From a virus: DNA of 64,000 nucleotides. This document shows positions 11,434-25,103 of this stretch, one piece after another (position 1 is the first letter of the stretch; each line of letters opens with the position of its first letter). The notes below the pieces were generated by a model. The model did no database searches. It was not told the DNA's origin and was given only the letters and a program-made list of their open reading frames with translations. The stretch lies in the IMG/VR virus record IMGVR_UViG_3300029258_005088; one strand, 5' to 3'. The position numbers and the translations under genes were made by a program.

Positions 11434-12121
11434 TGTCTTTCTCCTGCTGTTCCTTGAGCCTTAGCTGCTGTCCCTCGATAACAACGTTGACGAAGTCGTC
11501 CAGTCTGCGGATAAGCTTCGAATAGGAGACGTTCGACGGCCATACGCCACGATCCTCCAGCTGCTTGACGACCTGCTTCTTCAGATCGTCGTCCAGGGAG
11601 TTGACGATCGTCAACATCGAGTTGTACTCTCCGACGTCCTCCAGCCACCCCGTGTTCAGACCATTGGCCATCTTCTTGACGGTGAACAGGTAGCAGAAGT
11701 AGGTCTGGACGAAGTAATGGGACCATACGGCATACGCCTCGCGTCCCTTGGGGATCTCGTCCAGTCTCTCGTACAGACTGCGGAACTGGCACAGGCCGTT
11801 GAGGTTGTCCTGAAGAGACTCGTTCCAGATCTTGGCCATGAACTGCCCGATGGTGTCAAGAGCCAGGCGGCCCTCGGCATCTTCCGGGTAGAAGATCTCG
11901 GTGGCGGCGGTAAGCGACTCCTTCATGAAGAAGCCGAGACAATGACCGATGTCCCGGAACTCCGGATCGCTTACGAGGCCGCTCTCCTTCGAGACGACCC
12001 CTGCCCAGTGCTTGTTCTCCTTCCCGTCTCGTCCGACGAGCTGGGTGTTTCTAAGGTACTTGGCTCCACTGAAGCTGCCTTTCGGCTGTGGCTTTCTGGG
12101 CTTTTTGTTCTTCTTGGGCAT
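11426..12121 (-). CDS. Hypothetical protein
   Basis: 231-aa ORF with RBS; basic N-terminus, helical body. Confidence 0.6.
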   Translation of the reverse strand: MPKKNKKPRKPQPKGSFSGAKYLRNTQLVGRDGKENKHWAGVVSKESGLVSDPEFRDIGHCLGFFMKESLTAATEIFYPEDAEGRLALDTIGQFMAKIWNESLQDNLNGLCQFRSLYERLDEIPKGREAYAVWSHYFVQTYFCYLFTVKKMANGLNTGWLEDVGEYNSMLTIVNSLDDDLKKQVVKQLEDRGVWPSNVSYSKLIRRLDDFVNVVIEGQQLRLKEQQEKDSE

Positions 12122-12139
12122 GATTCCTCCTGCAGGTCT

Positions 12140-13519
12140 CTATATCTGTGCTTGTTTCCATTTGATCTCTTCGTCCTTCCTGTCCTCGCGGAACACCATC
12201 TCGCTCATCACCGTTCCCTGCATGAGCTGGGTCTTGAGCACGTAATGATCCGGAAGGATCTCGGCCCATGCCTGGAGCAACACCGGGTCATTGTCCTTGA
12301 CTCCTTGCTCGAACGCGGTATACAACGGTCTTCCGACCTTTCCCTTCATGCAACCCGTACATCCGCCCGGCTGTCTCTTGGCCTTCTCGTACTCGTCCAT
12401 GGCGTGCTTCACCTCGCCGGAGCCGAACCTCGCAGGAACCTTCTCGATGAATGCCGATGCCTTGTCCAGTATGACGGTGGGAGTGACCATGTGTTGCTGT
12501 ATGTCTCGAGCTGCCTTCAGGTAACTGCGCTTGCTGTCCGCGGGCAAAGTGACCTTGACCCTCTTCGGGTCTATGCGTTTGGTGAGAGCGAGAACTCCGT
12601 GGAGCGCTCTGTTGAGATAATCCGTAGGCAACCTGGGTATGCGAGCGTTTATTATGCCCGTACTGACCGTGCGTATACCGTAACTCGCAAGCGCGTTGTA
12701 GATTCTCATGGAGCCCGATCTGATGTCGTCGTAGACGCTCTCCTTCCTCTTGATCGAATCGGCGTGCGGAACCTCGTCGTATACGAAGAAATCGTCTACC
12801 TGGCCGCCGAGGACGACGCCAGTCAGTATGATATTGTGACAGCCCATGAGAACTGCCAGGGAAAGAGCGGTGGTGAACGAAGAGTCGTGGCCGGCATCGG
12901 TCACTCCCCTAGGATCCTTGAGCCACTCGTCGAAGGGCGTGTGCGACACCGAGTAGGACAAGGTATTGGCACAGGTCGCCGGAGTGAGCTTCGCCTGTTT
13001 CTTGGTCATCGGATCCCACAGCCCGTTGCCATAGCTGTCCTCATTGACGAACGCCTGTATGCGTTGAGACTCCATGGGCTTCGGCAGATAGTTCAATATG
13101 TCCTGCCTCCCCAGCCAGAAGTCCATCTCCACGTCTGTATAGCTGATGTTTCCGAGACCTATGATCGGCAGGCCGTATCCTCGAGCGACCTTGATGAACT
13201 CCTTGTCCAGAGTCGGGGCAGTTCCGGCTATGACGCACGTACCCCTGGAGAACAGGCCGCAGGGACCTTGTACGGCCTGTCCGTCGACCTTGAAAGGGTG
13301 AAGGGTCCTGAGAGTCTTCTGCAGGTTGTTGTAGCGACCCAGTGCGTCCATGTTGTAGGTGATCGTGGGTCTCTTTCCCTCTCGTATACCAAGGAGATCG
13401 TCCATCTTTCGGACTCTCTCGAACAACCTGTTGTCGTCCGTGCCGTTTGGAGTGACGGCAAGCATTATCCTCAAGTCACCGGACTCAATCGCTTCCTTGG
13501 TCAGACCGTACTGTGGCAT
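12140..13519 (-). CDS. Maf/DUF115-like (motility-associated factor-type) transferase domain protein
   Basis: CVIAGTAPTL, IIGLGN, SFTTALSLAVLMGCHNIILTGVVL; C-terminal CxxC. Confidence 0.6.
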   Translation of the reverse strand: MPQYGLTKEAIESGDLRIMLAVTPNGTDDNRLFERVRKMDDLLGIREGKRPTITYNMDALGRYNNLQKTLRTLHPFKVDGQAVQGPCGLFSRGTCVIAGTAPTLDKEFIKVARGYGLPIIGLGNISYTDVEMDFWLGRQDILNYLPKPMESQRIQAFVNEDSYGNGLWDPMTKKQAKLTPATCANTLSYSVSHTPFDEWLKDPRGVTDAGHDSSFTTALSLAVLMGCHNIILTGVVLGGQVDDFFVYDEVPHADSIKRKESVYDDIRSGSMRIYNALASYGIRTVSTGIINARIPRLPTDYLNRALHGVLALTKRIDPKRVKVTLPADSKRSYLKAARDIQQHMVTPTVILDKASAFIEKVPARFGSGEVKHAMDEYEKAKRQPGGCTGCMKGKVGRPLYTAFEQGVKDNDPVLLQAWAEILPDHYVLKTQLMQGTVMSEMVFREDRKDEEIKWKQAQI

Positions 13520-13670
13520 CTTCCTGCTCCGCTGGGGTTTCTATGGTTCTGAATTTATGATTACAGGCATCGCACCTGCGCTCCCTTAGTACCTTCGGAC
13601 GACCGTCCTCGGAGAAAGGTACCGTGAGCTTTACCTGCGTCTTCTCGTTTCCGCACTTGGTGCATTGCAT
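13485..13670 (-). CDS. NrdR-like Zn-ribbon protein lacking the ATP cone
   Basis: MQCTKCG...TQVKLT...EDGRPKVLRERRCDACNHKFRTIE parallels the NrdR N-terminal domain. Confidence 0.6.
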   Translation of the reverse strand: MQCTKCGNEKTQVKLTVPFSEDGRPKVLRERRCDACNHKFRTIETPAEQEDATVRSDQGSD

Positions 13671-13671
13671 A

Positions 13672-14266
13672 TCACTTCTCTGGTTTCTTGTGAAGATCCG
13701 GATCTATCTCGTCGGTGAGATTCCTGACCTGGTTCTGAGCGTCCACGGGCTTGTCTATGCCTATGTGGAGAGGCTTTGATCCCGTGTTCTTGAAAGTCTT
13801 GCAGGACTCGCAGTACTTGGCCTCGACGTCTCCGGTAACGGTCATCATAGTCTTTCCGCAATTGGGACACTTCATAGCTATCTCCTGTTATTTTCCACAC
13901 AGCCGTCGCAGACTACAGAGCCGTCAACCTGCCTATTGGACTTCATCATGGGAACGACCTTGCGGCATCTGTGGCATTGGACGCCCGGCTTTTCGATAAC
14001 GGCTTTCTGCTTTGCGAAGAACTCCTTTGTCTTGTTCTTGGTCATGAATCGTCTCCATGCATCTTACGCAACCACTCCTGAAGGCAGTGGAAGTCGCAGA
14101 AGTCCTGACGAACCGTTCGTACGCTGGGTCCCATGTCCTGGCTATGGTGCAGGATCACCCATCGCAGGAACGGTGTCGGGGCGCCCATCACTCCGGGTTT
14201 CAGATCGTATTCGGCTCTGTGTCCACACTGGTCGCACGTCCGTACTTCCATTTCTCTCTTACTCAT
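13672..14266 (-). other. Three small Cys/Zn-binding proteins (13672-13875, 13878-14045, 14042-14266)
   Basis: Paired CxxC motifs in each; 13878-14045 (55 aa) is not in the ORF track. Confidence 0.55.
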
Positions 14267-15017
14267 CCGGTATCTCCGCTTTGGCTTCCTTCAGGAAATA
14301 TTCGTAAGACTCCGGATGCACGACGTCCGGTCTCTTGCTGTGCGGTCCCAGAGTCTCTCTCAGAGCGAGCTCGTACATATGCAAACGGCCGACCTTCTCC
14401 TTGAACAGGAGCCACTGATCCTTTGCGTCCCAGCGGTCGATGAAGATCTTGAAATCGCATCCTATCTCTTTCGCATCCTTCGAGGAAACCACTCCACGGG
14501 CTTCTGCACGAGCAAGCAATCGCAAAGCACATTGCTTCCACTGCGTCAACTGCGTCGGAGACTTCGCACCGGCTTCCACCTTCGGAACGACGTCCGGAAG
14601 CCACTCCGGCTGATCCGGTTGCCAGTCGTAATCCGACTGGTGCGTGGACCCTTGCTCGAGAAGATGCCAGCCGAAGCGGTCCTCGGTCATAACCCATATG
14701 CCAAGGGCCTGGCATACGTCGCAGAGATCTTTCTTCGTGCCATGGGCCGTCTTCTGAGGGACGAGAACCACTCTGAAGTTCGGTCCCTTCTGCACGATCT
14801 TTCTCCGCACGCTCGGCGAGAGCCTTCGCCCGAACCAGTGCATCGGGGGCAAACACTGGGCCACCACCTTTATGTTGGCGCTGGTCTTGGCTTGCACACC
14901 AATCTGCGTACCATCTCGCACGAGCAGGATGTCCCACCCGCTTGTCTCCGGATAGCACGTCCAGCCATAACTCTCGGCTGCTCTCATGAACGTCTGGCAT
15001 AGTTCAGTTTCCTTCAT
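14259..15017 (-). CDS. Putative PD-(D/E)xK nuclease
   Basis: ETELCQTF...YPETSGWDILLVRDGTQIGVQAK (D...QxK). Confidence 0.55.
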   Translation of the reverse strand: MKETELCQTFMRAAESYGWTCYPETSGWDILLVRDGTQIGVQAKTSANIKVVAQCLPPMHWFGRRLSPSVRRKIVQKGPNFRVVLVPQKTAHGTKKDLCDVCQALGIWVMTEDRFGWHLLEQGSTHQSDYDWQPDQPEWLPDVVPKVEAGAKSPTQLTQWKQCALRLLARAEARGVVSSKDAKEIGCDFKIFIDRWDAKDQWLLFKEKVGRLHMYELALRETLGPHSKRPDVVHPESYEYFLKEAKAEIPDE

Positions 15018-15980
15018 TGACCGTGTCGTCCCACTTCTTGAATCTCTCGGCAAGGCACGTGGAACATACCACCGGGTGCTCCGCATCGGCGAAGTCCTTG
15101 AGACTCGTACAATCGACTTCCACTGAGATGGATACCTTCTTGTCCGGAAACTCCAAGGTGACTTCCTTCATCTTGATGACTCCGTTCTCCTCGGTGACTT
15201 CCTTGCCACATCCATCGCAGTGAAACTTGATCATGACTCTTCCTCCGGGTCCCTTACCTTGAGCATGAACTCGGATTGGTCTATATCGACCTCGACGCTC
15301 TCCAGAGGCACCTCGAAGGCGACCTGGCAGCTATCGTGCGTAAGCCTGAGCTCCAGGGCCTGGATCATGAAGCCGAGCTCCTCTCCGTCTATCGCTATGG
15401 AATACTTGTCCGCTTCCTTGAATATGGATAGCCTACCCAGCGTCTTCTTCATCTTGACTTTCTTTTCTGCGTTCATGTTATCTTGATAACCTCTTGTTCT
15501 TCCTTCTCCTGGAGCCATTCCTCGATGACGTCCTGGATTCCGTTGGCATAGGCCATGTCGTTGTCGCATCCCTTCTTGATCGCCGCAGTACGGAGATCTC
15601 TCCACTCATCGGCCAGTGCCATCACGATAGTGCCTTCTTCCTTTTCACCTGCCTCCGAGATCCGTTGGCCTGCGTACTTTCGGCCTTTCTTTCGGTGGTC
15701 CCTCGGGGTGCCTCTCCCTAGGAACATTCTTATTGCTGCGAACACTCTCGTCTTCCTCTTCGTAATAGGGTTCGTTCTGATATTCGTGATGGAACTTACA
15801 CATGACCGCCTCGCCTGTCTTGTATGGTCCGATCTTTTTCCAACCAAGTTCGTAAAGCCCATAGCTGGTATGGCACTTCTTGCAGGTCAGCTGCTTCACC
15901 GCATCCTGCAGGTTATAATGGATAAGCTCTCCGCACTCGCAAGGTATATGGGCCATCTGCATCTCCGGCTGTGTCATCAC
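15004..15980 (-). other. Four small hypothetical proteins (15004-15234, 15231-15476, 15473-15622, 15645-15980)
   Basis: Coupled start/stop overlaps; two have CxxC pairs. Confidence 0.55.
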
Positions 15981-16315
15981 ATACCTCTCGGCCTGAGGAG
16001 CTCTCCGATGGAGCCTTCATCCCAGTGTTTGTTCTGCTTGTGATAAACATAGGCCCCGGCGGTATCGTCCACGATCACTCGGCCGGGTTGAACGCCGAAC
16101 GCAATGGGGAGGTGGCCGAAGCCCATGTCCTGGAAGAACCTCTTAGTGTTCTCCACGCTCCATTCCTGTCCGGCGTCCTGAGGCCCCCGTTGAGTGATCA
16201 ATACTACCATGTGTCCTCGCCGTTGCAGCGTTTTAAGGAGGACTTTTGCTCCGGCGCAGAACTTGTTCTTATGGTAGTACAGGATCGTACCGTCGAGGTC
16301 TATGAAATAGGTCAT
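15977..16315 (-). CDS. Minimal HAD-superfamily phosphatase
   Basis: FIDLDGT (motif I), VLITQR (motif II), VIVDD (motif IV); start ATG 16315. Confidence 0.8.
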   Translation of the reverse strand: MTYFIDLDGTILYYHKNKFCAGAKVLLKTLQRRGHMVVLITQRGPQDAGQEWSVENTKRFFQDMGFGHLPIAFGVQPGRVIVDDTAGAYVYHKQNKHWDEGSIGELLRPRGM

Positions 16316-16782
16316 AAGTCTTCCGGATCCTCGGAGTCGGCCACCAACGCACAAGGAGCGGAGGAACTCCGCATCTCTATACAATGGCAGGATGGATCGG
16401 GAGACCCGTCGGGTCTGTCGTGCTGGCAGTCGCAGGAAGGTTCGCTGGACTGTTCCTCGTATACCGCGGAATCGAAGAGCTCCTGCGGCTCTTCTTGACT
16501 CTGCGGCGATTCTTCCGCCTCCTCGGCGGCGTTTTGCGCAAGCTCCTGCTGATACTTGTCGATGCAGGCCTCGCACCGTATCTCGTCTTCGTCGGATTCG
16601 GAGTAGGGTTCGTTGGAAAGGATCACGGCATTGCATCCGTCGCACGTGCCTACGAACCCCTTGCCGTCGATGGTTTCGGGGTCAATTCCGTACTCCTCGT
16701 AGAACTCCTCTATGGCGTCTTCCACCTCTACTCCGTCGTAGCTCTTCTCGACGAAGATAGTGCCTGTGATAACAACGGGCAT
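16312..16782 (-). CDS. Acidic Cys-containing hypothetical protein
   Basis: AGGAGG RBS, ATG 16782; CDGC...CEAC, CDC...CHC. Confidence 0.6.
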   Translation of the reverse strand: MPVVITGTIFVEKSYDGVEVEDAIEEFYEEYGIDPETIDGKGFVGTCDGCNAVILSNEPYSESDEDEIRCEACIDKYQQELAQNAAEEAEESPQSQEEPQELFDSAVYEEQSSEPSCDCQHDRPDGSPDPSCHCIEMRSSSAPCALVADSEDPEDL

Positions 16783-16874
16783 GCTTCCTCCTAGAGTTAA
16801 ATTAAGGGACGGGGCTCCTGGGCTTCCTGGGCTAGGTCCCCGTCCCGGGACCTCCAAGCCGGTCTCCACCGCCT

Positions 16875-16903
16875 ATTATAGATATACCGCATATCTATTA
16901 CAA
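16875..16903 (-). promoter_or_regulatory. Sigma70-like promoter with overlapping inverted-repeat operator
   Basis: TTGTAA-17 bp-TATAAT; ATAGATAT-5-ATATCTAT palindrome (16878-16898) covers the spacer. Confidence 0.75.
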
Positions 16904-16925
16904 ACGATTTTATGAAAATGGCAAT

Positions 16926-16958
16926 AAAAAAGCGGTCCGGGGGTAAGTCCGGACCGCT
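16926..16958 (-). terminator. Intrinsic terminator
   Basis: 10-bp stem AGCGGTCCGG/CCGGACCGCT followed by a T run on the minus strand. Confidence 0.85.
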
Positions 16959-17006
16959 GTTCCCTTGAAATCTAGGAGGATTTCATGCGCGGGTTGGAAA
17001 TGTCTT

Positions 17007-17549
17007 CTAAGTTGCCGGAGCCTGTTTCTTGGCGCCGCCGGCAAGTATGCTCTTCAGGCCCTGGTACGAGGACGAGGCGGCATCCGCCACGTTTCCGCCG
17101 AGATCCTTGAATCCCTGTGTGCCTTCGGTGATTCCGAGCTGGCCGGCCATTCCGAGGGGAACGCCCAGAAGCATGGAAAGGATGATGGCTCTCTTGACGT
17201 TCAGAGGTTTGCCCCTCAACGCGTCGATTCCGAGACTACCCGCTCCGGTGGCGACTGCTCCGGTGGCGGCACCTGGCCAGAGCTGACCAAGCTGAGAGCC
17301 CAAAGCGGAGTAAGGACCCGGTTCTGGCGGAAGAGCGGGACCGCCTTCCTGCTGGGCATCGTACTGACGCTCCTGCTCTTCCTTCGACAGAGGCTTGTTT
17401 CCTCTGTTTTCGCCTCTAGGCGCGAAGGCACCATGGCGATTTTCCGAATCAGTGTCTCCCGGCTGTGCTTCTCCGGGGTCTCTGGCTTCCTTGCTGATGT
17501 AACCGAGCATGAAACCCTTGAAGGCGATTGGTGATACTGCTATCGACAT
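17007..17549 (-). CDS. Gly/Ala-rich protein with hydrophobic segments (possible virion or membrane protein)
   Basis: RAIILSMLLGVPLGMAGQLGI; K-x-A motifs. Confidence 0.6.
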   Translation of the reverse strand: MSIAVSPIAFKGFMLGYISKEARDPGEAQPGDTDSENRHGAFAPRGENRGNKPLSKEEQERQYDAQQEGGPALPPEPGPYSALGSQLGQLWPGAATGAVATGAGSLGIDALRGKPLNVKRAIILSMLLGVPLGMAGQLGITEGTQGFKDLGGNVADAASSSYQGLKSILAGGAKKQAPAT

Positions 17550-17587
17550 GATGATCTCCTGTTTTTTGTCTAGTATCGTTTACTTAC

Positions 17588-17616
17588 AATCTACAAAGCA
17601 TTCAACCCTTTGACAA
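17588..17616 (-). promoter_or_regulatory. Sigma70-like promoter
   Basis: TTGTCA-17 bp-TAGATT upstream of ORF 17549. Confidence 0.55.
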
Positions 17617-17634
17617 GGTATTTGCGAGCTTTTC

Positions 17635-18069
17635 TCAACGAGCGCGTCCCAGACAGAACCTCCCGGAATCGCTCAACTGCTTCTTCTGACTCTTCATATA
17701 GCTGTGATAATGGTCCGATATCTTGGTCACCAGATCCATTCGTACGTGACCTACGTTCTCCCATACCGGGGCCTCCTCGGAAACCACCTTGTCGGGATCC
17801 TCTGCATAGAACGCATGGGGTATGGACAGCTCCTCCAGAAGAGGAAGGAGCATCTCCGCTTCGAGGTTGCCGCTTATGTTGACGTCTATGAGGACGAACT
17901 CGTACCCTCGCTCCACGATCTGCTTCCGAGCCTGCTCCACGGTCTCCGCGGTTTCGACCTCGAACGTAATCGGAAGTACGCACCGCGGACAAGGTCCCTT
18001 GGCTCTCCCCAGCGTCCTCTGGAGATCCTCCCGGTGTTTTCGATCATCTTCGACGAGTAGTATTCTCAT
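17635..18069 (-). CDS. Stand-alone response-regulator receiver domain with CxxC insert
   Basis: MRILLVEDD...ETAETVEQARKQI...YEFVLIDVNI; CPRC insertion. Confidence 0.8.
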   Translation of the reverse strand: MRILLVEDDRKHREDLQRTLGRAKGPCPRCVLPITFEVETAETVEQARKQIVERGYEFVLIDVNISGNLEAEMLLPLLEELSIPHAFYAEDPDKVVSEEAPVWENVGHVRMDLVTKISDHYHSYMKSQKKQLSDSGRFCLGRAR

Positions 18070-18070
18070 C

Positions 18071-18727
18071 CTACTTACCTCCTAGGATTTTCGCGAGAAA
18101 GCGTTTGAACCCTTTCCTGCGGCTACTGTTTACGTGTAGCTCTACCTGGCTGGCTTTTTCCTTGATGATCTTTATCTTGTCTTTTGCAGGCCCCTCGGTC
18201 TGGACGAAATCGGCGCTTATGAATCCGATTATGTCGTTGCCTTTCCGTATCGGGTATTTGGCGACTGATCGCACTCCCTGAGATATCAACACTGCCTGGT
18301 AGTAGCATTCCTCGAGCTCTTCCACCTTGTCGAACTGGACTTTCTCGAACGGATCATTCACTAGGAAGCTCACGGCTTCCGGTACGGTACTGACCAAAAT
18401 GTTCTGGGAGCTCTCCTTATGAGAACCTATTCCATTCGCAAGACACTCGTAAGCCCCACTGAGTCTCAGAATGGAATTCCCGTTGATGTACCGTTCCCCA
18501 TTGTGGAACAGGAACAGACTTACTCTGTCCGCGTTCACCTCTACACGAATCTCTACTAGGATTTCTTTGATCTTGACGTCGTTTTCCAAAGTCTCCTTCA
18601 CGAAATGGTTCTTGAACCACTTCGATATCCTGGCGCGGACGATAAGTATCAGCACCAGGATAACCGCACCCGTGGCGAATATAGCCAGGTTGAGGAGACC
18701 TTCGTAAACCCTTTCTGTAATGTCCAT
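18071..18727 (-). CDS. Single-TM + GAF-like domain protein (T4 holin T-like architecture)
   Basis: TM LAIFATGAVILVLILIV; NADRVSLFLFHNG...YE...SVAKYPI...IIGFISADF. Confidence 0.55.
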   Translation of the reverse strand: MDITERVYEGLLNLAIFATGAVILVLILIVRARISKWFKNHFVKETLENDVKIKEILVEIRVEVNADRVSLFLFHNGERYINGNSILRLSGAYECLANGIGSHKESSQNILVSTVPEAVSFLVNDPFEKVQFDKVEELEECYYQAVLISQGVRSVAKYPIRKGNDIIGFISADFVQTEGPAKDKIKIIKEKASQVELHVNSSRRKGFKRFLAKILGGK

Positions 18728-18751
18728 CCGGAACCTCCCGGGAGGTTCCTA

Positions 18752-19174
18752 TCAGCCGCTATAGGCTTTGAGCATCGTGGACAGAACGCGGGCGTTCGAA
18801 GAGGACGCCTTCTTCGGAAGACTCAAGTCGGGCATGCCGGATCCGGTCTCCGTGGTAATGTTCTTACCACTGGTCGAGATCTCGGTGGCTCCGGTTTCCT
18901 GAGCGGACTTGCCCTTGGTGGGATCGTCGTCGAGCTTCTGCTCGCCCTTGCCGTAGCCCTTGTTCTTGTTCTCCATCTTCTTGCCCGTGGCGGACGACGG
19001 AGTGGTATTGACGGAGGCTCTCACCTGCTCGACTCCCTGGTCCTCGGCTTTCTTGTTCAAGCCAGCGGCGGCAAGCTTCTGGTTGAGTGCGCCTGCGAGC
19101 TCTCCTACACCGGCTTCTTCCGCGGCGGTCTTCTCCAGAATGAGTTCGACTCCTGCCTGTAGTCTGGGTTGCAT
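18752..19174 (-). CDS. Low-complexity K-x-A-rich protein (possible internal head protein)
   Basis: AAGGAG RBS; 5 K-x-A motifs in 140 aa. Confidence 0.55.
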   Translation of the reverse strand: MQPRLQAGVELILEKTAAEEAGVGELAGALNQKLAAAGLNKKAEDQGVEQVRASVNTTPSSATGKKMENKNKGYGKGEQKLDDDPTKGKSAQETGATEISTSGKNITTETGSGMPDLSLPKKASSSNARVLSTMLKAYSG

Positions 19175-19197
19175 GTCTTATCTCCTTGGTTGAGATT

Positions 19198-19215
19198 CTG
19201 AATACGCGTATTCAG
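19198..19215. promoter_or_regulatory. Perfect 18-bp palindrome CTGAATACGCGTATTCAG (member of a dispersed family)
   Basis: Seen in sequence; relatives at 25013, 39457, 53189, 61845. Confidence 0.6.
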
Positions 19216-19222
19216 TTTTCAG

Positions 19223-20410
19223 TTATACGTGATTGAACCACCAGTCGCCGGAGGCCGTCTTGACCATGTCGGCTTTCTTCTTTTTCTTGTGCGGCTTGTT
19301 GGTGCCGCAGCCGCAGGAAGAACAGGCTTCCTTCTCGTTGCCTTCCATCTTCGGATCGGTGGTGATCTTCTGTTCCTTGATCGCGATGCCCAGCTCCTGG
19401 CCGTCCTGCTTGAGGTCTTCGTGCTGGGTCTGGTGGAGATCCGGACTAAGCTCTTCGGCACGCTTCTGCTGGCCGTAGAGATAGTCCCGGGTGGAGGGAT
19501 CCATCTTGAAAGCGTTCTCGAAACCTTGCTTGGCCTCTTCGCTGAAATCACCTGTGAAGCGGAAACGCATGCCTCGGTTCTCGTCCATGCCCGGGAACAT
19601 GCCGGGACGGAGGGAACGGGCGAAAGCGACGTTGTTCGGATGGCCGCAGCGGGCTGTCTTCTGGTAGCCGTCTGCATAGCCCTCGAGAGCGCCGGCCTTG
19701 TTCATCGGAGCCACGGGTGCGGGCTTCTTTTCGCGTCCGCCTGGAGCGTCCTTGTTTCCGAACCACTTCTTCAGAGCATGCTGAGGAAGCCACTCCCAAC
19801 CGGGCTTGACGTTGCTGTTGGAGTCATCCGTCCCTAGCTGGTCCATTATCCCTTTGGCCCCGAGTGCACCGGCACCTAGGCCAAGGCCCTTGTGGACACC
19901 CATGCTACGAAGCCTGTCGTGCATGGACTCTCTTGATCCTGCAGCAGTAGGGCCTACCTTCGGAGAGCCATCTGCATTGAAGTAGGGACTGGCAGCCGTA
20001 ACTCCGGCCGATCCTCCGACAGGCTTGTCGACACCTAGGCCACGGAGCTTGTCGACCAGACTCGAGGACGGTGCCGCCATGGCCTGCTTCTGTCCCAGAT
20101 CGTACGTCGGGACGTCTTCGGATGCTTCGTCCATCTCGGACATCAGGGAGGGGGCGCCTCCGGGAGTGTCTGGCTGGCGCTGCGTGACTGGATGCATTTG
20201 ATCGGCCGGAGGCATCTGCTCGACCGGAGGCAGTTGTCCGGGAGCCGCTCCCACGGCCTGGGCAAGTCCAGCGAGCTTGCTCTTCCATAATCTGACGTCG
20301 AAATCGTGTTGTATAGCTGCCTGTTTCTCGAGCGTACTCGGATGCAGCCTGGGGTCGTTGGTCAATAGATAGGCTTTGAAAAGATCCACTTCTGATGTGC
20401 TCATGAACAC
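19223..20410 (-). CDS. Low-complexity K-x-A-rich protein (possible internal head protein)
   Basis: 395 aa, Gly/Pro/Ala-rich, 9 K-x-A motifs, own promoter. Confidence 0.6.
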   Translation of the reverse strand: MFMSTSEVDLFKAYLLTNDPRLHPSTLEKQAAIQHDFDVRLWKSKLAGLAQAVGAAPGQLPPVEQMPPADQMHPVTQRQPDTPGGAPSLMSEMDEASEDVPTYDLGQKQAMAAPSSSLVDKLRGLGVDKPVGGSAGVTAASPYFNADGSPKVGPTAAGSRESMHDRLRSMGVHKGLGLGAGALGAKGIMDQLGTDDSNSNVKPGWEWLPQHALKKWFGNKDAPGGREKKPAPVAPMNKAGALEGYADGYQKTARCGHPNNVAFARSLRPGMFPGMDENRGMRFRFTGDFSEEAKQGFENAFKMDPSTRDYLYGQQKRAEELSPDLHQTQHEDLKQDGQELGIAIKEQKITTDPKMEGNEKEACSSCGCGTNKPHKKKKKADMVKTASGDWWFNHV

Positions 20411-20446
20411 TTCCTCCTGTTTAAGATAAGATAGTCAACTAGGAAA

Positions 20447-20475
20447 AATATACAAAGGGAAATGTTTATAGACAA
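20447..20475 (-). promoter_or_regulatory. Sigma70-like promoter
   Basis: TTGTCT-17 bp-TATATT. Confidence 0.55.
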
Positions 20476-20494
20476 GGATTTTCAAGTGATAGCT

Positions 20495-20530
20495 AAAAAA
20501 AGGAACGGTACCTCCGAAGAGGTCCGTTCC
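20495..20530 (-). terminator. Intrinsic terminator closing the ribozyme-array operon
   Basis: GGAACGG-ACCTC-TTCG-GAGGT-A-CCGTTCC followed by T7. Confidence 0.85.
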
Positions 20531-20534
20531 GAGT

Positions 20535-20939
20535 TTATTTGCCTTGAGCAAGCCTCCGTATCCTTGCGGAATGTTCGGCGGCAGACAACAGATGCGCCCA
20601 TAGGATCGTCATCTGTCGCTTGCTCGGGTATCCCATTACGTCATGGAAGTCCAGGTGTTCAGGCGCGTCTGCGATATCCTGCAGAGCGTCGACCAGCCAG
20701 ACCTGCTCATGATCGGTCATTGGCTCGAGGGCCAACGAGGTCTTGGCTACCTCGTGGAGGAATCGTGCTTCCTCCTTGAGGGTCATTCCCTTCGGAATGA
20801 TATCAGCCTCGACCGGGGCCTTAGAGACCTCCGATACCTCGACCGGGGCCTTCTCGGCCTCTTCCGTGGTATTGACGATTACTACGATGCCCGTGATGAC
20901 GAGCAAGACAACGATGATAGCGGTTAGCTTTTTCATCAT
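20535..20939 (-). CDS. Signal-anchored hypothetical protein (last gene of ribozyme array)
   Basis: AAGGAG RBS then MMKKLTAIIVVLLVITGIVVIV; VSKAPVE-type short repeat. Confidence 0.75.
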   Translation of the reverse strand: MMKKLTAIIVVLLVITGIVVIVNTTEEAEKAPVEVSEVSKAPVEADIIPKGMTLKEEARFLHEVAKTSLALEPMTDHEQVWLVDALQDIADAPEHLDFHDVMGYPSKRQMTILWAHLLSAAEHSARIRRLAQGK

Positions 20940-20954
20940 TTCTCCTTGGTTGGG

Positions 20955-21046
20955 GGTTTGAGCACTATTAGCCGGACTCACGCAGGGAAGGAGCCCTGCG
21001 CTACACCGGACCTCCCGGGCCTATTCCCGGGAGGCAGCCTTGCACC
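20955..21046 (-). ncRNA. Twister-sister-like ribozyme, copy 1
   Basis: GGU-GCAAG-GCU...P3(AAUAGG)...CCGG-UGUAG-[hairpin, CUCCUU loop]-UGAGU-CCGG...AGU-GCUCA-A-ACC; predicted cut 20960/20959. Confidence 0.75.
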
Positions 21047-21894
21047 TACTTGCAGTAAAGGACTGCACACCTATCCACCAGCTCCACCAGTTCCTCCAGG
21101 GGAAGGAGGCTGTGGGTGGAGGCCGTGAATCCGCCCTGATGGACGAACTTCACTCGATCATCCAGACGGACCTTTCGGAAGTCAAGGCCCAACTCGTCGT
21201 AGCGATACAACGAGTAACCGGATCCCCTGGTATCGGGTGTGATCGTGAACCCGATATCGGGGTGGAACCTTCGACGGAACTGATCCATCCCGAAGGCTCC
21301 TCTCTCCATGCCGTTGACGGCGGGCATGAAGAGCCCGGAGAGGCCGGCTGCCTGGACTAACTGCGAATGGTTCGCGTAGTCCTCCATGCGTCGGTCCAGA
21401 TGAGCTACGTGGCTGAAGAGATTCTCTCCGAGCCTCTTCAAACACTCCCATACGAAGTCTCCCGGTCTGATGACCTGGTGGCTTCCGAACTCATCCAGAA
21501 GCCATGACTCGATGGGATTGCTCATCAAGCAGCCGACCAGCTTGGCCGTGCCGATATTTGCCCACTGGGCCACACCGGCATTCCCCTTGTTATCCCGAAT
21601 AATCTTCGGGATATACCAGCCGAAGGCGTCTTGGAACGCCCTCGACATATCCATGGCCGACAGGACCATGGAGAAACAACAGTCCGTGGACGTCACTCCA
21701 TGGTGATCATAGTTGTTTCTCCAGGGCTCCCAGAGCCCTCCTTCGTCGAGAACCCATACGCTGGGGTCCTCGAGCTCTTCGGCCGTCGGCTCTCGCCGCT
21801 CTATGCGATCCACGCTAGTTGTATGGATCACGTCGGCACAGGCCTTCATCTCGTCGAAATGGGCCTTTCCATCGTGGGTCACTATGTAAGACAT
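21046..21894 (-). CDS. MYG1/UPF0160-like DHH-superfamily hydrolase (exonuclease-like)
   Basis: VTHDGKAHFDE, VLDEGG, YDHHG, FVHQGGF. Confidence 0.75.
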   Translation of the reverse strand: MSYIVTHDGKAHFDEMKACADVIHTTSVDRIERREPTAEELEDPSVWVLDEGGLWEPWRNNYDHHGVTSTDCCFSMVLSAMDMSRAFQDAFGWYIPKIIRDNKGNAGVAQWANIGTAKLVGCLMSNPIESWLLDEFGSHQVIRPGDFVWECLKRLGENLFSHVAHLDRRMEDYANHSQLVQAAGLSGLFMPAVNGMERGAFGMDQFRRRFHPDIGFTITPDTRGSGYSLYRYDELGLDFRKVRLDDRVKFVHQGGFTASTHSLLPLEELVELVDRCAVLYCK

Positions 21895-21913
21895 AGTTTA
21901 CTCCTTGGTTGGG

Positions 21914-22005
21914 GGTTTGAGCACTTTTAACCGGACTCACGCGGAGGAAGGAGCCTCCGCGCTACACCGGACCGGGAGCCCTATTGCTCCCGGCAGCCTT
22001 GCACC
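21914..22005 (-). ncRNA. Twister-sister-like ribozyme, copy 2
   Basis: Same core; P3 CCGGGAGC/GCUCCCGG; predicted cut 21919/21918. Confidence 0.75.
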
Positions 22006-22006
22006 G

Positions 22007-22330
22007 CTATACCCTGCTCATGTAAAGCATGAGCCTGCCGTCCCGTATGACTGGACGGCTGCTCTCGACCCTGCGAATGTCTCTTTCCCAGACGAACGCA
22101 ACGGGTTCCGGAAGGGGTATGTCTTCCGGAGCTACCCGAGGCTCAGTCTCGAAGATGTCTTCGAGCTGGTCCTCTACCGCCTGCTCGTACCGCTCCCGAC
22201 GGTACTGAGCTCTGAGGTAGACCTCGAATCGATCCCGGGAAAAGATCCGATACTGGCCGAAACTGGTTCTCACCAGCTTCCCGGTCGTGTGGTTGTCCCG
22301 GCGTTTGTGTTTCACGCTCTTTGGCGACAT
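22007..22330 (-). CDS. Hypothetical protein (array gene)
   Basis: ATG 22330 after AAGGAG; the ORF-track extension runs into the repeat. Confidence 0.7.
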   Translation of the reverse strand: MSPKSVKHKRRDNHTTGKLVRTSFGQYRIFSRDRFEVYLRAQYRRERYEQAVEDQLEDIFETEPRVAPEDIPLPEPVAFVWERDIRRVESSRPVIRDGRLMLYMSRV

Positions 22331-22350
22331 AAGGATCCTCCTTGGTTTGG

Positions 22351-22443
22351 GGTTTAAGCACACTTATTCGGACTCACGCGGAGGAAGGAGCCTCCGCGCT
22401 ACACCGATCCCCCCGGGCCTATCCCGGGGGGCTGCCATGCACC
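22351..22443 (-). ncRNA. Twister-sister-like ribozyme, copy 3 (GCUUA variant)
   Basis: P2 GCA/UGU and P4 UCGG/CCGA compensatory changes; predicted cut 22356/22355. Confidence 0.7.
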
Positions 22444-22478
22444 ACTAGGCCTTTTAACGTCCTGCCCAGGACATGGGT

Positions 22479-22739
22479 CTATACTGTCCCGACAAGCCTG
22501 TCGAGCCTACCCGGACTCGTGAAGTGGGTGCGTTCCTTCGCACCCTCCACGCGGTTGCCGTACTGGTCGCATTCTACGACCGTTACCTCCCACAGACCAT
22601 CACTGCCCGGGTCGAACGAGACCACCAAGCTATGGTTCTCCCAGTAATGACACCACAGAATGTTTCCTGGTTTGAACCACTCATCCACCGGCATCTCAGC
22701 CGGGCCGGGAAGGTCTTGTCTTTCGATTGCAGTCATCAT
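22479..22739 (-). CDS. Hypothetical protein (array gene)
   Basis: ATG 22739 after AAGGAG. Confidence 0.7.
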   Translation of the reverse strand: MMTAIERQDLPGPAEMPVDEWFKPGNILWCHYWENHSLVVSFDPGSDGLWEVTVVECDQYGNRVEGAKERTHFTSPGRLDRLVGTV

Positions 22740-22759
22740 AGCAATCCTCCTTGGTTTTG

Positions 22760-22850
22760 GGTTTAAGCACACTTATTCGGACTCACGGGAATTAAGGAGC
22801 TTCCCGCTACACCGATCCGGACGCCCTATTGCGTCCGGCTGCCATGCACC
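22760..22850 (-). ncRNA. Twister-sister-like ribozyme, copy 4 (GCUUA variant)
   Basis: P3 CCGGACGC/GCGUCCGG; insert stem CGGGAA/UUCCCG with CUCCUU; predicted cut 22765/22764. Confidence 0.7.
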
Positions 22851-22885
22851 GCTAGGCCTTTTAACGTCCTGCCCAGGACACGGGT

Positions 22886-23302
22886 CTACGCAGTCTTGAC
22901 CTCCTTCGGCAACAGACTGAAGTTCCCCTGGCGGATATTCCAGTCCACCAGCTTAACTATCTGATCCGGGAGAAGCCGCTTACCGACTCCGGATTCTACG
23001 ACGGCCACACAATCCCTCTTCCTTACGGGAGGAGGATTGTCACGATGCCAGTCGTAGAAGTGCTCGTACACGAGAGGGTCTGTGACCGACTCGTGAAAAG
23101 CACTGATGAGGGAGCGGCCACTGTGCTCTATCTCAGCACAGTCTGCGTAATACCCCAGAGTGAACCGACGGCCGGAGTACTCCAGTTTGGAGAACAGCTC
23201 CTCGAAGAGCGTCTCCACGACCTTCGTGTTCTGCTGCCGGAGTTCTTTCTTCATGCTGGGCCGTTCCTCGGCCAGCGCCAACAGTTCTTGGAACCTGTCC
23301 AT
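22886..23302 (-). CDS. Hypothetical protein (array gene)
   Basis: ATG 23302 after AAGGAG. Confidence 0.7.
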   Translation of the reverse strand: MDRFQELLALAEERPSMKKELRQQNTKVVETLFEELFSKLEYSGRRFTLGYYADCAEIEHSGRSLISAFHESVTDPLVYEHFYDWHRDNPPPVRKRDCVAVVESGVGKRLLPDQIVKLVDWNIRQGNFSLLPKEVKTA

Positions 23303-23320
23303 AACTATCTCCTTGTTGGG

Positions 23321-23404
23321 GGTTTGAGCACTTTTAACCGGACTCGGGCGGGGGAAGGCCCCCCGCCCTACACCGGACCTGCTAAATGCAGGCAGCCATG
23401 CACC
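23321..23404 (-). ncRNA. Twister-sister-like ribozyme, copy 5
   Basis: Short P3 CCUGC-AUUUA-GCAGG; insert stem GGGCGGGG/CCCCGCCC; predicted cut 23326/23325. Confidence 0.72.
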
Positions 23405-23508
23405 CTGCAAAGCCACTCCGTTACAAGCATCCCTGGGAGTCTCCAGGCCTTGTACGGGTATTGCGCGGCAATGCGTATGGGAGTTTAACGTCCTATCCCG
23501 GGACGGAC

Positions 23509-24048
23509 CTAGCAGGTGCTAGGCCGGAACGACTTCAGGGCGGCCTCTCTGGCCGGGTCTCCCTTGGCATCGTTCTTGAGGGCCTCAAGGGCCTCGTCCC
23601 CTGCCTTGAGCACTCGGTAATCATCCGAGAACGAATAATACCAATCCATCTTCTGCAGACGGACCAGGTACTCCTCGTCGCATACCAAAGGCTCTTTTTC
23701 GGGCTCTTCCTCGGGCTCTTCCTCAGGCTCTTCCGACTCCCGTATAGGGGGCCTGAAGGCGTCGACGAAGGATTTGAAGATGCCTGGCTTATCGCCTTTC
23801 TTCTTCGCCTTCGCCTTCGCCTTTGCCTTCGGACGGACGAGAATACTCTCGCCCAGCACGAATCTGCCCAGAGCCTGGGGGACGTCGTTGGGGGCTTCCC
23901 AGACGTCCTCGACGAAGACCGACAGGACACCCACGCCGGGGTGTCTGTTGGCGAACTCGAGCTCGGCCTCTTCCCTCGAAGAGGCGGCGGGGATTCCTAG
24001 ATGGCCGTGTTGGCCAGTGGAATCGTCATACCAGTTTACGATGAACAT
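23509..24048 (-). CDS. Hypothetical protein with KAKAKAK and EEPEEEP low-complexity tracts (array gene)
   Basis: ATG 24048 after AAGGAG; C-terminal DWYYSFSDD. Confidence 0.7.
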   Translation of the reverse strand: MFIVNWYDDSTGQHGHLGIPAASSREEAELEFANRHPGVGVLSVFVEDVWEAPNDVPQALGRFVLGESILVRPKAKAKAKAKKKGDKPGIFKSFVDAFRPPIRESEEPEEEPEEEPEKEPLVCDEEYLVRLQKMDWYYSFSDDYRVLKAGDEALEALKNDAKGDPAREAALKSFRPSTC

Positions 24049-24067
24049 GGTAATCTCCTTGGTTTGG

Positions 24068-24159
24068 GGTTTGAGCACAATTAACCGGACTCACGCGGAG
24101 GAAGGAGCCTCCGCGCTACACCGGACCTGTGACCCTATTGTCACAGGCTGCCTTGCACC
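24068..24159 (-). ncRNA. Twister-sister-like ribozyme, copy 6
   Basis: P3 CCUGUGAC/GUCACAGG; predicted cut 24073/24072. Confidence 0.75.
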
Positions 24160-24198
24160 GCTCGGGTAGATTAACGTCCTCCCCAGGACGGTTGTGCC

Positions 24199-24585
24199 TC
24201 AGACGAGCTCGTGCTCGTAATCGGCGTATTCCCACAGGTCCTTGGACTCGGAGTTCATATCGAAATCCACCTTCGTCAGTTCCTGGAGGAACCGGATCAA
24301 CCGGTTCCAGTAACGGAACTTGAAGCCTTCATAAGACATCGTCTCGAAGGTCTTAGACTCCTTGAACCCTGTACGGGACAGGGTCCTGGCGGACTCCTCG
24401 TGAACGGTGACGAACGTAAGCGTGTCCGTCGTTCCTTTCAGAGGAGGGGTTATGAGGGCGCAACGATCGATCAGCTTGTGACCGATCAGGATGCTCTCCT
24501 CGTTTACCCTGGACCGACCTGCGATCCATCCCGTGCCGATGAGTTCACGATTGATTCCGTCGATGAGCAGTTGATTAGCTGCCAT
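24199..24585 (-). CDS. Hypothetical protein (array gene)
   Basis: ATG 24585 after AAGGAG. Confidence 0.7.
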   Translation of the reverse strand: MAANQLLIDGINRELIGTGWIAGRSRVNEESILIGHKLIDRCALITPPLKGTTDTLTFVTVHEESARTLSRTGFKESKTFETMSYEGFKFRYWNRLIRFLQELTKVDFDMNSESKDLWEYADYEHELV

Positions 24586-24605
24586 AGGATATCTCCTTGG
24601 TTTGG

Positions 24606-24696
24606 GGTTTGAGCACAATTAACCGGACTCACGCGGAGGAAGGAACCTCCGCACTACACCGGACCGAGGACCCTATGCCCTCGGCTGCCATGCACC
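24606..24696 (-). ncRNA. Twister-sister-like ribozyme, copy 7
   Basis: P3 CCGAGG/CCUCGG; insert loop UUCCUU; predicted cut 24611/24610. Confidence 0.75.
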
Positions 24697-24698
24697 GC

Positions 24699-24878
24699 CT
24701 ACGTCCAGTCTTTGACGGCAGACCGGAGGAAGCCGTTTTCGACTTCTCTGCGCTTACGCGACAGAAAGGAGTCGAAACTCTCCTTTGGCTTATTTTGTTC
24801 CTCGCGACGGTTGTCACGCCTGCGTCTGGCGTGCGCCGATCGAAGACCGTTCCAAGCCTGCTCTGACCACTGACTCAT
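24699..24878 (-). CDS. 59-aa basic protein, first gene of the array (not in ORF track)
   Basis: AAGGAGG RBS; MSQWSEQAWNGLRSAHARRRRDNRREE...KDWT*. Confidence 0.7.
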   Translation of the reverse strand: MSQWSEQAWNGLRSAHARRRRDNRREEQNKPKESFDSFLSRKRREVENGFLRSAVKDWT

Positions 24879-24928: not shown

Positions 24929-24937
24929 ATTATGCCA
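24929..24937 (-). promoter_or_regulatory. Candidate extended -10 promoter for the array
   Basis: TG-G-CATAAT immediately after a terminator; no clear -35. Confidence 0.4.
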
Positions 24938-24938
24938 C

Positions 24939-24972
24939 AAAAAACCCCCGAATTAAGGTCTAAATCGGGGGT
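24939..24972 (-). terminator. Intrinsic terminator
   Basis: ACCCCCGA-13 nt-TCGGGGGT followed by a T run. Confidence 0.7.
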
Positions 24973-25044
24973 AATCATCCGACCCGAAGGGGGGTCCCCG
25001 GGGCCTGGAAAAGTGAATACGCATTCAGTTTTCAAGACGTAGCT

Positions 25045-25079
25045 AAAAGAAAAAACGAGCCGGCCCGAAGGCCGACCCG
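25045..25079 (-). terminator. Intrinsic terminator
   Basis: GGGTCGGCC-TTCG-GGCCGGCTC followed by GTTTTTTCTTTT. Confidence 0.8.
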
Positions 25080-25103
25080 CTGCGCTGAGGTTGGAGGCTT
25101 AAC

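Follow-up and report, generated by a model that had tools for sequence, protein, structure and literature searches.

What is a repeat that resembles a self-cleaving ribozyme doing in front of one gene after another in a viral genome, and why should the loop of a hairpin inside it be complementary to the ribosome-binding site (RBS) of the gene that follows? The question is raised by a 64,000-nucleotide (nt) stretch of viral DNA (IMG/VR virus record IMGVR_UViG_3300029258_005088; hereafter the window), in which an array of seven such repeats is located among small minus-strand genes of a 201-kb metagenomic contig. The repeats bear a ribozyme core of the twister-sister type with an extra hairpin, here called P4.1, inserted into loop 4. 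A first-pass annotation of this DNA had proposed that the P4.1 loop, CUCCUU in most copies, pairs with the RBS AAGGAG and blocks translation until self-cleavage releases the RBS, so that the element would act as a ribozyme-gated ON switch. We discuss the structural basis of this proposal, the readings that compete with it, and the genes among which the array lies.

A repeat search returned seven copies of a 68-118-nt unit, the element itself being of ~100 nt. The pattern GGTGTAG-N(10-40)-GAGTCCG has exactly seven matches, every one of them on the minus strand; chance alone would give 0.02. With a covariance model (R1) derived from the copies, the same seven score 98-122 bits and no other site in the window exceeds 13 bits, which bears out the seven-copy array described at first pass. 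All seven copies are paralogues of one genome. Their parts are as follows, where bits are R1 scores and energies are those predicted for the duplex between the P4.1 loop and the RBS:

20955-21046, minus strand: copy 1, element (P1a to P1b); predicted cut C20960/A20959; 98.1 bits
20980-21001, minus strand: copy 1, hairpin P4.1; loop CUCCUU at 20988-20993; in the minimum-energy fold
20942-20947, minus strand: copy 1, RBS AAGGAG; AUG at 20937-20939; duplex -7.6 kcal/mol
21914-22005, minus strand: copy 2, element; predicted cut C21919/A21918; 121.9 bits
21939-21962, minus strand: copy 2, hairpin P4.1; loop CUCCUU at 21948-21953; in the minimum-energy fold
21901-21906, minus strand: copy 2, RBS AAGGAG before the MYG1-like gene; duplex -7.1 kcal/mol
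22351-22443, minus strand: copy 3, element; predicted cut U22356/A22355; 112.5 bits
22376-22399, minus strand: copy 3, hairpin P4.1; loop CUCCUU at 22385-22390; in the minimum-energy fold
22338-22343, minus strand: copy 3, RBS AAGGAG(G); duplex -7.8 kcal/mol
22760-22850, minus strand: copy 4, element; predicted cut U22765/A22764; 97.9 bits
22785-22807, minus strand: copy 4, hairpin P4.1, its stem shorter and its loop of 9 nt; CUCCUU at 22794-22799; in the minimum-energy fold
22747-22752, minus strand: copy 4, RBS AAGGAG(G); duplex -8.4 kcal/mol
23321-23404, minus strand: copy 5, element, the most divergent; predicted cut C23326/A23325; 98.8 bits
23346-23368, minus strand: copy 5, hairpin P4.1; loop GCCUU at 23355-23359, of which CCUU alone is complementary to the RBS; duplex -3.3 kcal/mol; in the minimum-energy fold
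23309-23314, minus strand: copy 5, RBS AAGGAG, 11 nt past the predicted cut
24068-24159, minus strand: copy 6, element; predicted cut C24073/A24072; 120.7 bits
24093-24116, minus strand: copy 6, hairpin P4.1; loop CUCCUU at 24102-24107; in the minimum-energy fold
24055-24060, minus strand: copy 6, RBS AAGGAG; duplex -7.6 kcal/mol
24606-24696, minus strand: copy 7, element; predicted cut C24611/A24610; 112.8 bits
24631-24654, minus strand: copy 7, hairpin P4.1; loop UUCCUU at 24640-24645, with one G-U wobble against the RBS; duplex -5.3 kcal/mol
24593-24598, minus strand: copy 7, RBS AAGGAG, placed by the parse of the element

All seven copies share a common plan. In its first half this runs P1a GGU, GCA(A/U)G, P2a GC(U/A), the P3 hairpin, P4a (C/U)CGG, UGUA and the inserted hairpin; in its second half it continues with GAGU, P4b CCG(G/A), an NUAAN linker, P2b (A/U)GU, GCU(C/U)^A with the caret at the predicted cut, A, and P1b ACC. 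A tail follows, consisting of a C/A linker of 6-7 nt, AAGGAG, 2-7 nt, and the AUG of a gene. P1 is invariant and very short, as had been noted, with GGU and ACC forming 3 base pairs (bp), or 4 bp in copy 5. AAGGAG is likewise invariant and starts 12 nt past the predicted cut (11 nt in copy 5), in agreement with the distance given at first pass; this spacing is held constant while the linker sequence drifts between C and A.

To which class of RNA does this plan belong? Twister-sister, a ribozyme that cleaves itself, reportedly goes back to Weinberg et al. in 2015; it is represented in Rfam by RF02681 and by the structures 5Y87 (four-way) and 5T5A (three-way). A published four-way construct reads ACCC / GCAAG / GCC / P3 / GCUG / GUGCAAGUC / CAGC / P5 / GGC / GCUCA / U / GGGU (PMC6101554). 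Aligned to it, the phage copies read GGU / GCA(A/U)G / GC(U/A) ... (C/U)CG / GUGUA-hairpin-GAGUC / CG(G/A) ... (A/U)GU / GCU(C/U)A / A / ACC. The two have in common the layout of P1, internal loop L1 and P2, the L1 strands GCAAG and GCUCA (GCA(A/U)G and GCU(C/U)A in all seven copies), the cut site at C-A on the 3′ strand, a multi-helix junction beyond the flanking helices P1 and P2, and a P4 capped by G-U-G ... A-G-U-C. In crystal numbering, the positions kept are G5, C6, A7, G9, G59, C60, U61, A63, G29, U30, G31, A33, A34, G35, U36 and C37. The twister-sister-type core that had been claimed for the repeats, comprising the L1 strands, the predicted cut position and the loop 4 motif, can therefore be followed motif for motif in the published construct.

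The copies also differ from twister-sister. Loop 4, read as GUGUA...GAGUC, matches eight of nine canonical positions in every copy, but it is split by one extra G and by the 22-24-nt hairpin, which separates the counterparts of A33 and A34. Between G29 and C37 the canonical loop has 7 nt, as the first-pass annotation had stated, and in the parse of all seven copies the hairpin is an addition to it. The phage copies further lack P5, in whose place the 5-nt NUAAN linker leaves a three-way junction; their P1 has just 3 bp, an A stands for U64, and C-G gives way to A-U or U-A as the last P2 pair. Within L1, A8 is replaced by U in copies 3, 4, 5 and 7, and C62 by U in copies 3 and 4. In published assays of twister-sister mutants, C62U cleaves well and A8U partially. 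Minimal twister-sister-like ribozymes tolerate U.U in place of A8-U61, and in the active LINE-1 and OR4K15 twister-sister-like ribozymes G.A replaces G5.U64 (PMC11620745).

The Rfam model of the family reports no copy. RF02681 gave no match at the gathering threshold on the whole window, and none at E<=10 on 7.5 kb or on a 141-nt stretch holding copy 2; the same searches returned no twister-sister, pistol or other ribozyme, their sole weak matches being terminator-like hairpins near 24937-25004. For this reason we read the element as a new, twister-sister-like structural variant and not as a certified member of the family, with cleavage as a prediction. Judged by its sequence, it is likely to be an active ribozyme of the twister-sister type, and we hold this with good confidence.

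The fold is well supported by comparison of the copies. A consensus structure comprising P1, P2, P3, P4 and P4.1 pairs 97.8% of the alignment cells, with compensatory two-sided changes in 8 of its 26 pairs. None of 500 shuffles reached the observed covariation score, and sliding the partner columns by 1-3 lowers pairing to 31-53%. P1 and P2 are paired in all cells, and P2 consists of G-U, C-G and a third pair that is U-A in three copies and A-U in four. P4 swaps C-G for U-A among the copies and the P3 stem is different in almost every one, so both helices of the three-way junction that P2 enters show covariation; in the P4.1 helix, both sides change in three of nine pairs. P4.1 appears in the minimum-energy folds of all copies but copy 7; the complete P1/P2 frame appears in those of three copies.

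The inserted hairpin measures 22-24 nt, contains 7-9 bp and stands between UGUA and GAGU throughout. Its variants are:

Copy 1: stem CGCAGGG/CCCUGCG, loop CUCCUU
Copies 2, 3 and 6: stem CGCGGAGG/CCUCCGCG, loop CUCCUU
Copy 4: stem CGGGAA/UUCCCG, loop GCUCCUUAA, which contains CUCCUU
Copy 5: stem GGCGGGGG/CCCCCGCC, loop GCCUU
Copy 7: stem UGCGGAGG/CCUCCGCG, loop UUCCUU

Copies 2, 3 and 6 share one and the same hairpin, which leaves just five independent variants. The stems are compensated as first listed, with one more pair closing each of them, G-C in copy 5 and G-U in the others. The loops were also read correctly as CUCCUU in five copies and UUCCUU in copy 7; the loop of copy 5, given as CCUU, reads GCCUU in full, CCUU being its complementary part. 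CUCCUU is present on four different stems.

Side features of the hairpin concern its arms. In copies 2, 3, 6 and 7 the 5′ arm holds an RBS-like GGAGG, paired with CCUCC of the 3′ arm, and the 3′ arm and loop together form an 11-nt pyrimidine tract, CUCCUUCCUCC. The RBS of copies 3 and 4 reads AAGGAGGA, and a second register, GGAGGA/UCCUCC, could form there if the top of the hairpin opened.

Can the loop reach and hold the RBS? CUCCUU is the exact complement of the downstream AAGGAG, so that all six positions form Watson-Crick pairs in five copies; copy 7 retains five and one G-U pair, and copy 5 retains four. In every parse the predicted cut falls between the two partners, an anti-RBS sequence inside the ribozyme facing an RBS beyond the cut, as cleavage-released masking would need. 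The predicted bimolecular duplexes amount to -7.1 to -8.4 kcal/mol in copies 1-4 and 6, falling to -5.3 in copy 7 and -3.3 in copy 5, and P1 is predicted to be worth -0.9 kcal/mol. When the element and 40 nt on each side are scanned, the RBS is the best partner of the loop in six of the seven copies, copy 5 being the exception, and the runners-up lie inside paired stems at non-conserved positions. For a duplex of about -7 kcal/mol the dissociation constant lies in the micromolar range, and we estimate that at this strength most molecules would have the contact while the chain is intact and lose it after the cut; the predicted energies in this respect fit the weak hold and release envisaged by the first-pass annotation. 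Six-base loops can engage a partner with all their bases, the TAR-TAR* kissing complex being an example, so the contact should be sterically possible. The published fold places P4 next to P2, pointing towards L1, and an arm extending from the tip of loop 4 would for that reason be expected to run alongside and past the short P1, where the tail lies. From the sequence, we place pairing of the loop with the RBS only slightly below an even chance.

How, then, might such an element work? We infer cleavage, loop-RBS pairing and a translational effect, in the following order. The P4.1 loop would be transcribed and formed before the RBS emerges, and the emerging AAGGAG, 12 nt past the scissile C/U-A step, would be captured by it. 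In the uncut RNA this contact would add 4-6 bp to the 3-bp P1 and keep the substrate strand docked. It would also hide the RBS, so that a 30S ribosomal subunit would be unable to load and unfold the ribozyme core upstream; once bound, a 30S subunit would cover the P1b and L1b strands 12-20 nt upstream and so undo the catalytic core. Cleavage would turn the contact into an intermolecular one, which at about -5 to -8 kcal/mol would dissociate. The 3′ product would then carry a 5′-OH, a 12-nt unstructured, C/A-rich leader and an open RBS, and the ribozyme would remain at the 3′ end of the upstream message. This would be the ON switch proposed at first pass, now with a reason for it to exist. The whole chain, from an active ribozyme through capture of the RBS to translation freed by cleavage, is offered tentatively, as something less than an even bet. 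That a loop-RBS pseudoknot in a natural twister-sister variant gates translation so strictly that each gene is translated only from its own processed 5′-OH message is possible, and more doubtful still. The same pairing would be equally consistent with clamping of the weak P1, or with keeping ribosomes off the ribozyme until it is cut.

Several observations weigh against this proposal, and they are considered here together with the readings that they favour. The first of these readings, unlikely in our judgement and the best of the alternatives, is that P4.1 is purely peripheral (a folding aid, a spacer or a protein-binding site), that its complementarity to the RBS is incidental, and that the ribozymes cut the operon into single-gene messages. 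Small ribozymes often carry peripheral hairpins that make them faster (PMC11620745). Any C/U-rich loop resembles an anti-RBS, and AAGGAG is the general RBS of this phage, occurring 99 times on the minus-strand RNA and before 34 crude minus-strand calls of open reading frames (ORFs), so that the loop matches every strong RBS and not these seven specifically. Since the RBS never varies, no compensatory change between loop and RBS is visible, and of the changes in the loop one preserves pairing as a wobble and one loses it. By our own count on the alignment, the loop has ~0.5 and the P4.1 stem ~1.0 substitutions per site, a twofold difference that is a weak signal of selection. Conservation is no weaker in the P3 loop (A)AUAGG, where the RBS offers no explanation; copy 5 has lost most of the complementarity, keeping just CCUU in its loop, and its core is intact. 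Against an incidental match stands the rarity of an exact 6-nt complement across the cut, about 1 in 4096 for a free hexamer, although, once the composition is fixed at three C and three U, one arrangement in 20 is the right one. The rank of the RBS as best partner in six of seven copies likewise speaks for a selected contact, as do two natural changes: in copy 7 the C-to-U substitution, the only one in the loop of an otherwise identical hairpin, retains pairing as a G-U wobble, and copy 4 has kept the hexamer despite the loss of two loop-adjacent stem pairs.

A further point against the proposal is energetic. Nested folding does not score pseudoknots, and with the standard pseudoknot penalty of ~9.6 kcal/mol (Dirks-Pierce) the calculated net gain from the proposed contact would be near zero to a few kcal/mol. 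In a second alternative, the loop would pair with the RBS without cleavage being the trigger, either as a constitutive damper competed by the 30S subunit or after processing, when a 3′-terminal ribozyme could fold back onto the 5′ RBS of its own message or act on neighbouring messages in trans. Competition by the 30S subunit is plausible because duplexes of -7 to -8 kcal/mol are similar in energy to RBS/16S rRNA pairing, and after cutting each internal message would have AAGGAG near its 5′ end and, close to its 3′ end, a CUCCUU loop. A contact in trans or over a long range would, however, operate at a far lower effective concentration than one ~50 nt away in the same element, and the constant 12-nt spacing of cut and RBS argues for a local geometric constraint; we regard this alternative as improbable.

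We give an equally slim chance to the repeats not being active ribozymes at all, in which case they would be a repeated cassette at leaders or junctions that resembles twister-sister, for instance the remains of a decayed ribozyme, a scar of recombination or simply a translational operator, with P4.1 as an ordinary RBS-masking hairpin. The silence of the Rfam twister-sister model fits this, as do the 3-bp P1 and the U at the highly conserved A8 in four copies. In the published crystal structure A7 of the catalytic loop intercalates between A33 and A34, exactly where P4.1 is inserted, so that the insertion could disturb the tertiary contact of loop 4; moreover, no independent lineage that would show long-term conservation of the element appeared in the collections searched. 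Both strands of the catalytic loop and eight of nine loop 4 positions are nevertheless kept in all seven copies while P3, P4 and P2 covary, which argues for selection on a ribozyme fold, and the deviations that they carry are known to be tolerated. Internal loops by themselves suffice for slow cleavage in minimal relatives (PMC11620745). Other roles for P4.1 can be set aside: a plus-strand function, with AAGGAG in the hairpin loop, lacks a start codon after AAGGAG; an intrinsic terminator lacks a U-run after P4.1, where the terminator scan finds none; and a stem of merely 7-9 bp does not suit an RNase III site.

How would a cleavage-released RBS compare with known switches? In the preQ1-II and SAM-II pseudoknot riboswitches the RBS is sequestered by the loop of an upstream structured RNA, which a metabolite opens or closes. 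The phage element would hide its RBS in the same way, by an upstream loop, whereas its proposed trigger is irreversible cleavage of the backbone. Cleavage of the glmS ribozyme is ligand-dependent and turns its gene OFF through decay of the 5′-OH product, whereas cleavage of the phage element would turn the gene ON. Like the phage element, glmS is natural; it cleaves itself within a bacterial 5′ leader, and the cut alters expression of the downstream gene (PMC6154101).

The closest parallels are engineered. An RBS hidden in a stem of the hammerhead or twister ribozyme makes translation cleavage-dependent in Escherichia coli, with effects of 5- to 100-fold (PMC5052635). In these hammerhead switches and in the twister platform (Felletti et al., 2016, PMC5052635), an anti-RBS within the ribozyme pairs past the cut and cleavage turns expression ON, a logic that the proposed phage switch, itself plausible, would mirror. 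In the synthetic constructs the RBS lies inside a ribozyme stem (P1 or P3), whereas its phage partner would be the hairpin loop of an added arm, giving a pseudoknot; the phage element is moreover natural, occurs seven times in one operon and has no evident ligand-sensing domain. A full-text literature search found no natural ribozyme with an anti-RBS element, though an optional loop 4 helix may be present in the original discovery papers.

To our knowledge, the role of small self-cleaving ribozymes in bacteria and phages is largely unknown. If the proposed switch is true, it would provide one concrete biological role and a natural counterpart of the engineered masking switches, nature having reached the same logic of RBS masking, and it would explain how a polycistronic phage transcript is converted into insulated single-gene messages. 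It would also mean that twister-sister loop 4 can take in an entire helix, a point relevant to the fold and to the search models that at present miss such variants. The case differs from masking by a core stem in its twister-sister-type class and in its use of an added arm and loop, and it makes the function of a phage ribozyme testable: the array is a compact and directly testable set of seven natural variants, including two natural loop mutants (copies 5 and 7).

The conserved loop of P3 is a further feature of the element. (A)AUAGG is found in six of the seven copies, on six different P3 stems, in the following hairpins:

21010-21035, 21971-21994, 22408-22432, 22816-22839, 24125-24148 and 24663-24685, minus strand: P3 hairpins with loop (A)AUAGG

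The P3 of copy 5 (23377-23393) is short and has the loop AUUUA; this copy is also the one whose P4.1 loop deviates. No obvious partner is seen for the conserved P3 loop. A kissing contact of AAUAGG with the P4.1 loop was considered and rejected, as merely 3 bp (AGG/CCU) are available and the tip of P3 should, from the published fold, point away from L1.

Ahead of copies 3, 4, 5 and 6 stands another conserved module (repeat family D4), in which GUUAA comes after a hairpin GUCC..GGAC; it has no match in Rfam. In copies 1, 2 and 7, which do not have it, the upstream stop codon overlaps or abuts P1a with a gap of at most 2 nt. The copies of the module are:

22444-22481, 22851-22888, 23405-23511 and 24160-24201, minus strand: D4 module, between the upstream stop codon and P1a

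Is the array transcribed as a unit? No sigma-70-like promoter was found in any of its spacers, and terminators lie only upstream of the array and none within it, from which a single transcript in need of processing may be read. The simplest reading is one transcript with eight genes. The features at its upstream end are:

25081-25054, minus strand: terminator-like hairpin with a U-run, upstream of the array
~24982-24937, minus strand: terminator-like hairpin with a U-run, upstream of the array
24699-24878, minus strand: 59-codon gene with an ordinary GGAGG RBS and no ribozyme, 3′ of both terminator-like hairpins

The region 24937-25081, in which no promoter was recognised, probably marks the start of the ribozyme-punctuated transcription unit.

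The contig as a whole appears from its gene content to belong to an uncultured large phage, since nearly all ORFs are without a known family, apart from glycosyltransferases and PAPS-reductase-like proteins. The genes 3′ of the seven repeats encode products of 86-282 residues, for which no known family was found except in the case of a MYG1-like protein and of a 179-aa protein with a weak match to the PHROG family phrog_16661 (function unknown). The largest gene in the array is:

21046-21894, minus strand: MYG1-like gene, behind the RBS of copy 2

Its product belongs to the PF03690 family, is metal-dependent hydrolase- or exonuclease-like, and has bacterial homologues of ~30% identity. The presence of an RNA-end-processing enzyme within a ribozyme array may perhaps be no coincidence.

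Relatives of the element were sought more widely. Exact-pattern scans of viral contigs, metagenome contigs and species genomes gave no further copies. A loose 14-base pattern matched 120 viral stretches, which we read as chance matches because none of the first 100, checked with model R1, scored at E<=1; a 5′-half pattern matched 14 metagenome stretches, none of them real (best 12.4 bits, in GC-rich sequence), and blastn against GenBank phages gave chance matches only. Among the array proteins, those of 179 aa and 128 aa have no homologues that we could find, and one of 138 aa is 49% identical to a homologue from a 20-kb contig that is without the element and without any Rfam ribozyme. A scan of viral contigs with the MYG1-like protein found no relatives, and the contigs with an identical protein are identical to the window. 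A 57%-identical homologue (P0002; sample SRR14699985) stands alone on a 976-nt contig with 89 nt upstream, and a public assembly of the same phage, represented by Logan contig L122 (equal to positions 11046-21937 of the window), is interrupted within the repeat, at a point 43 nt upstream of the MYG1-like gene. There are thus hints that a related phage may likewise have repeats flanking its MYG1-like gene.

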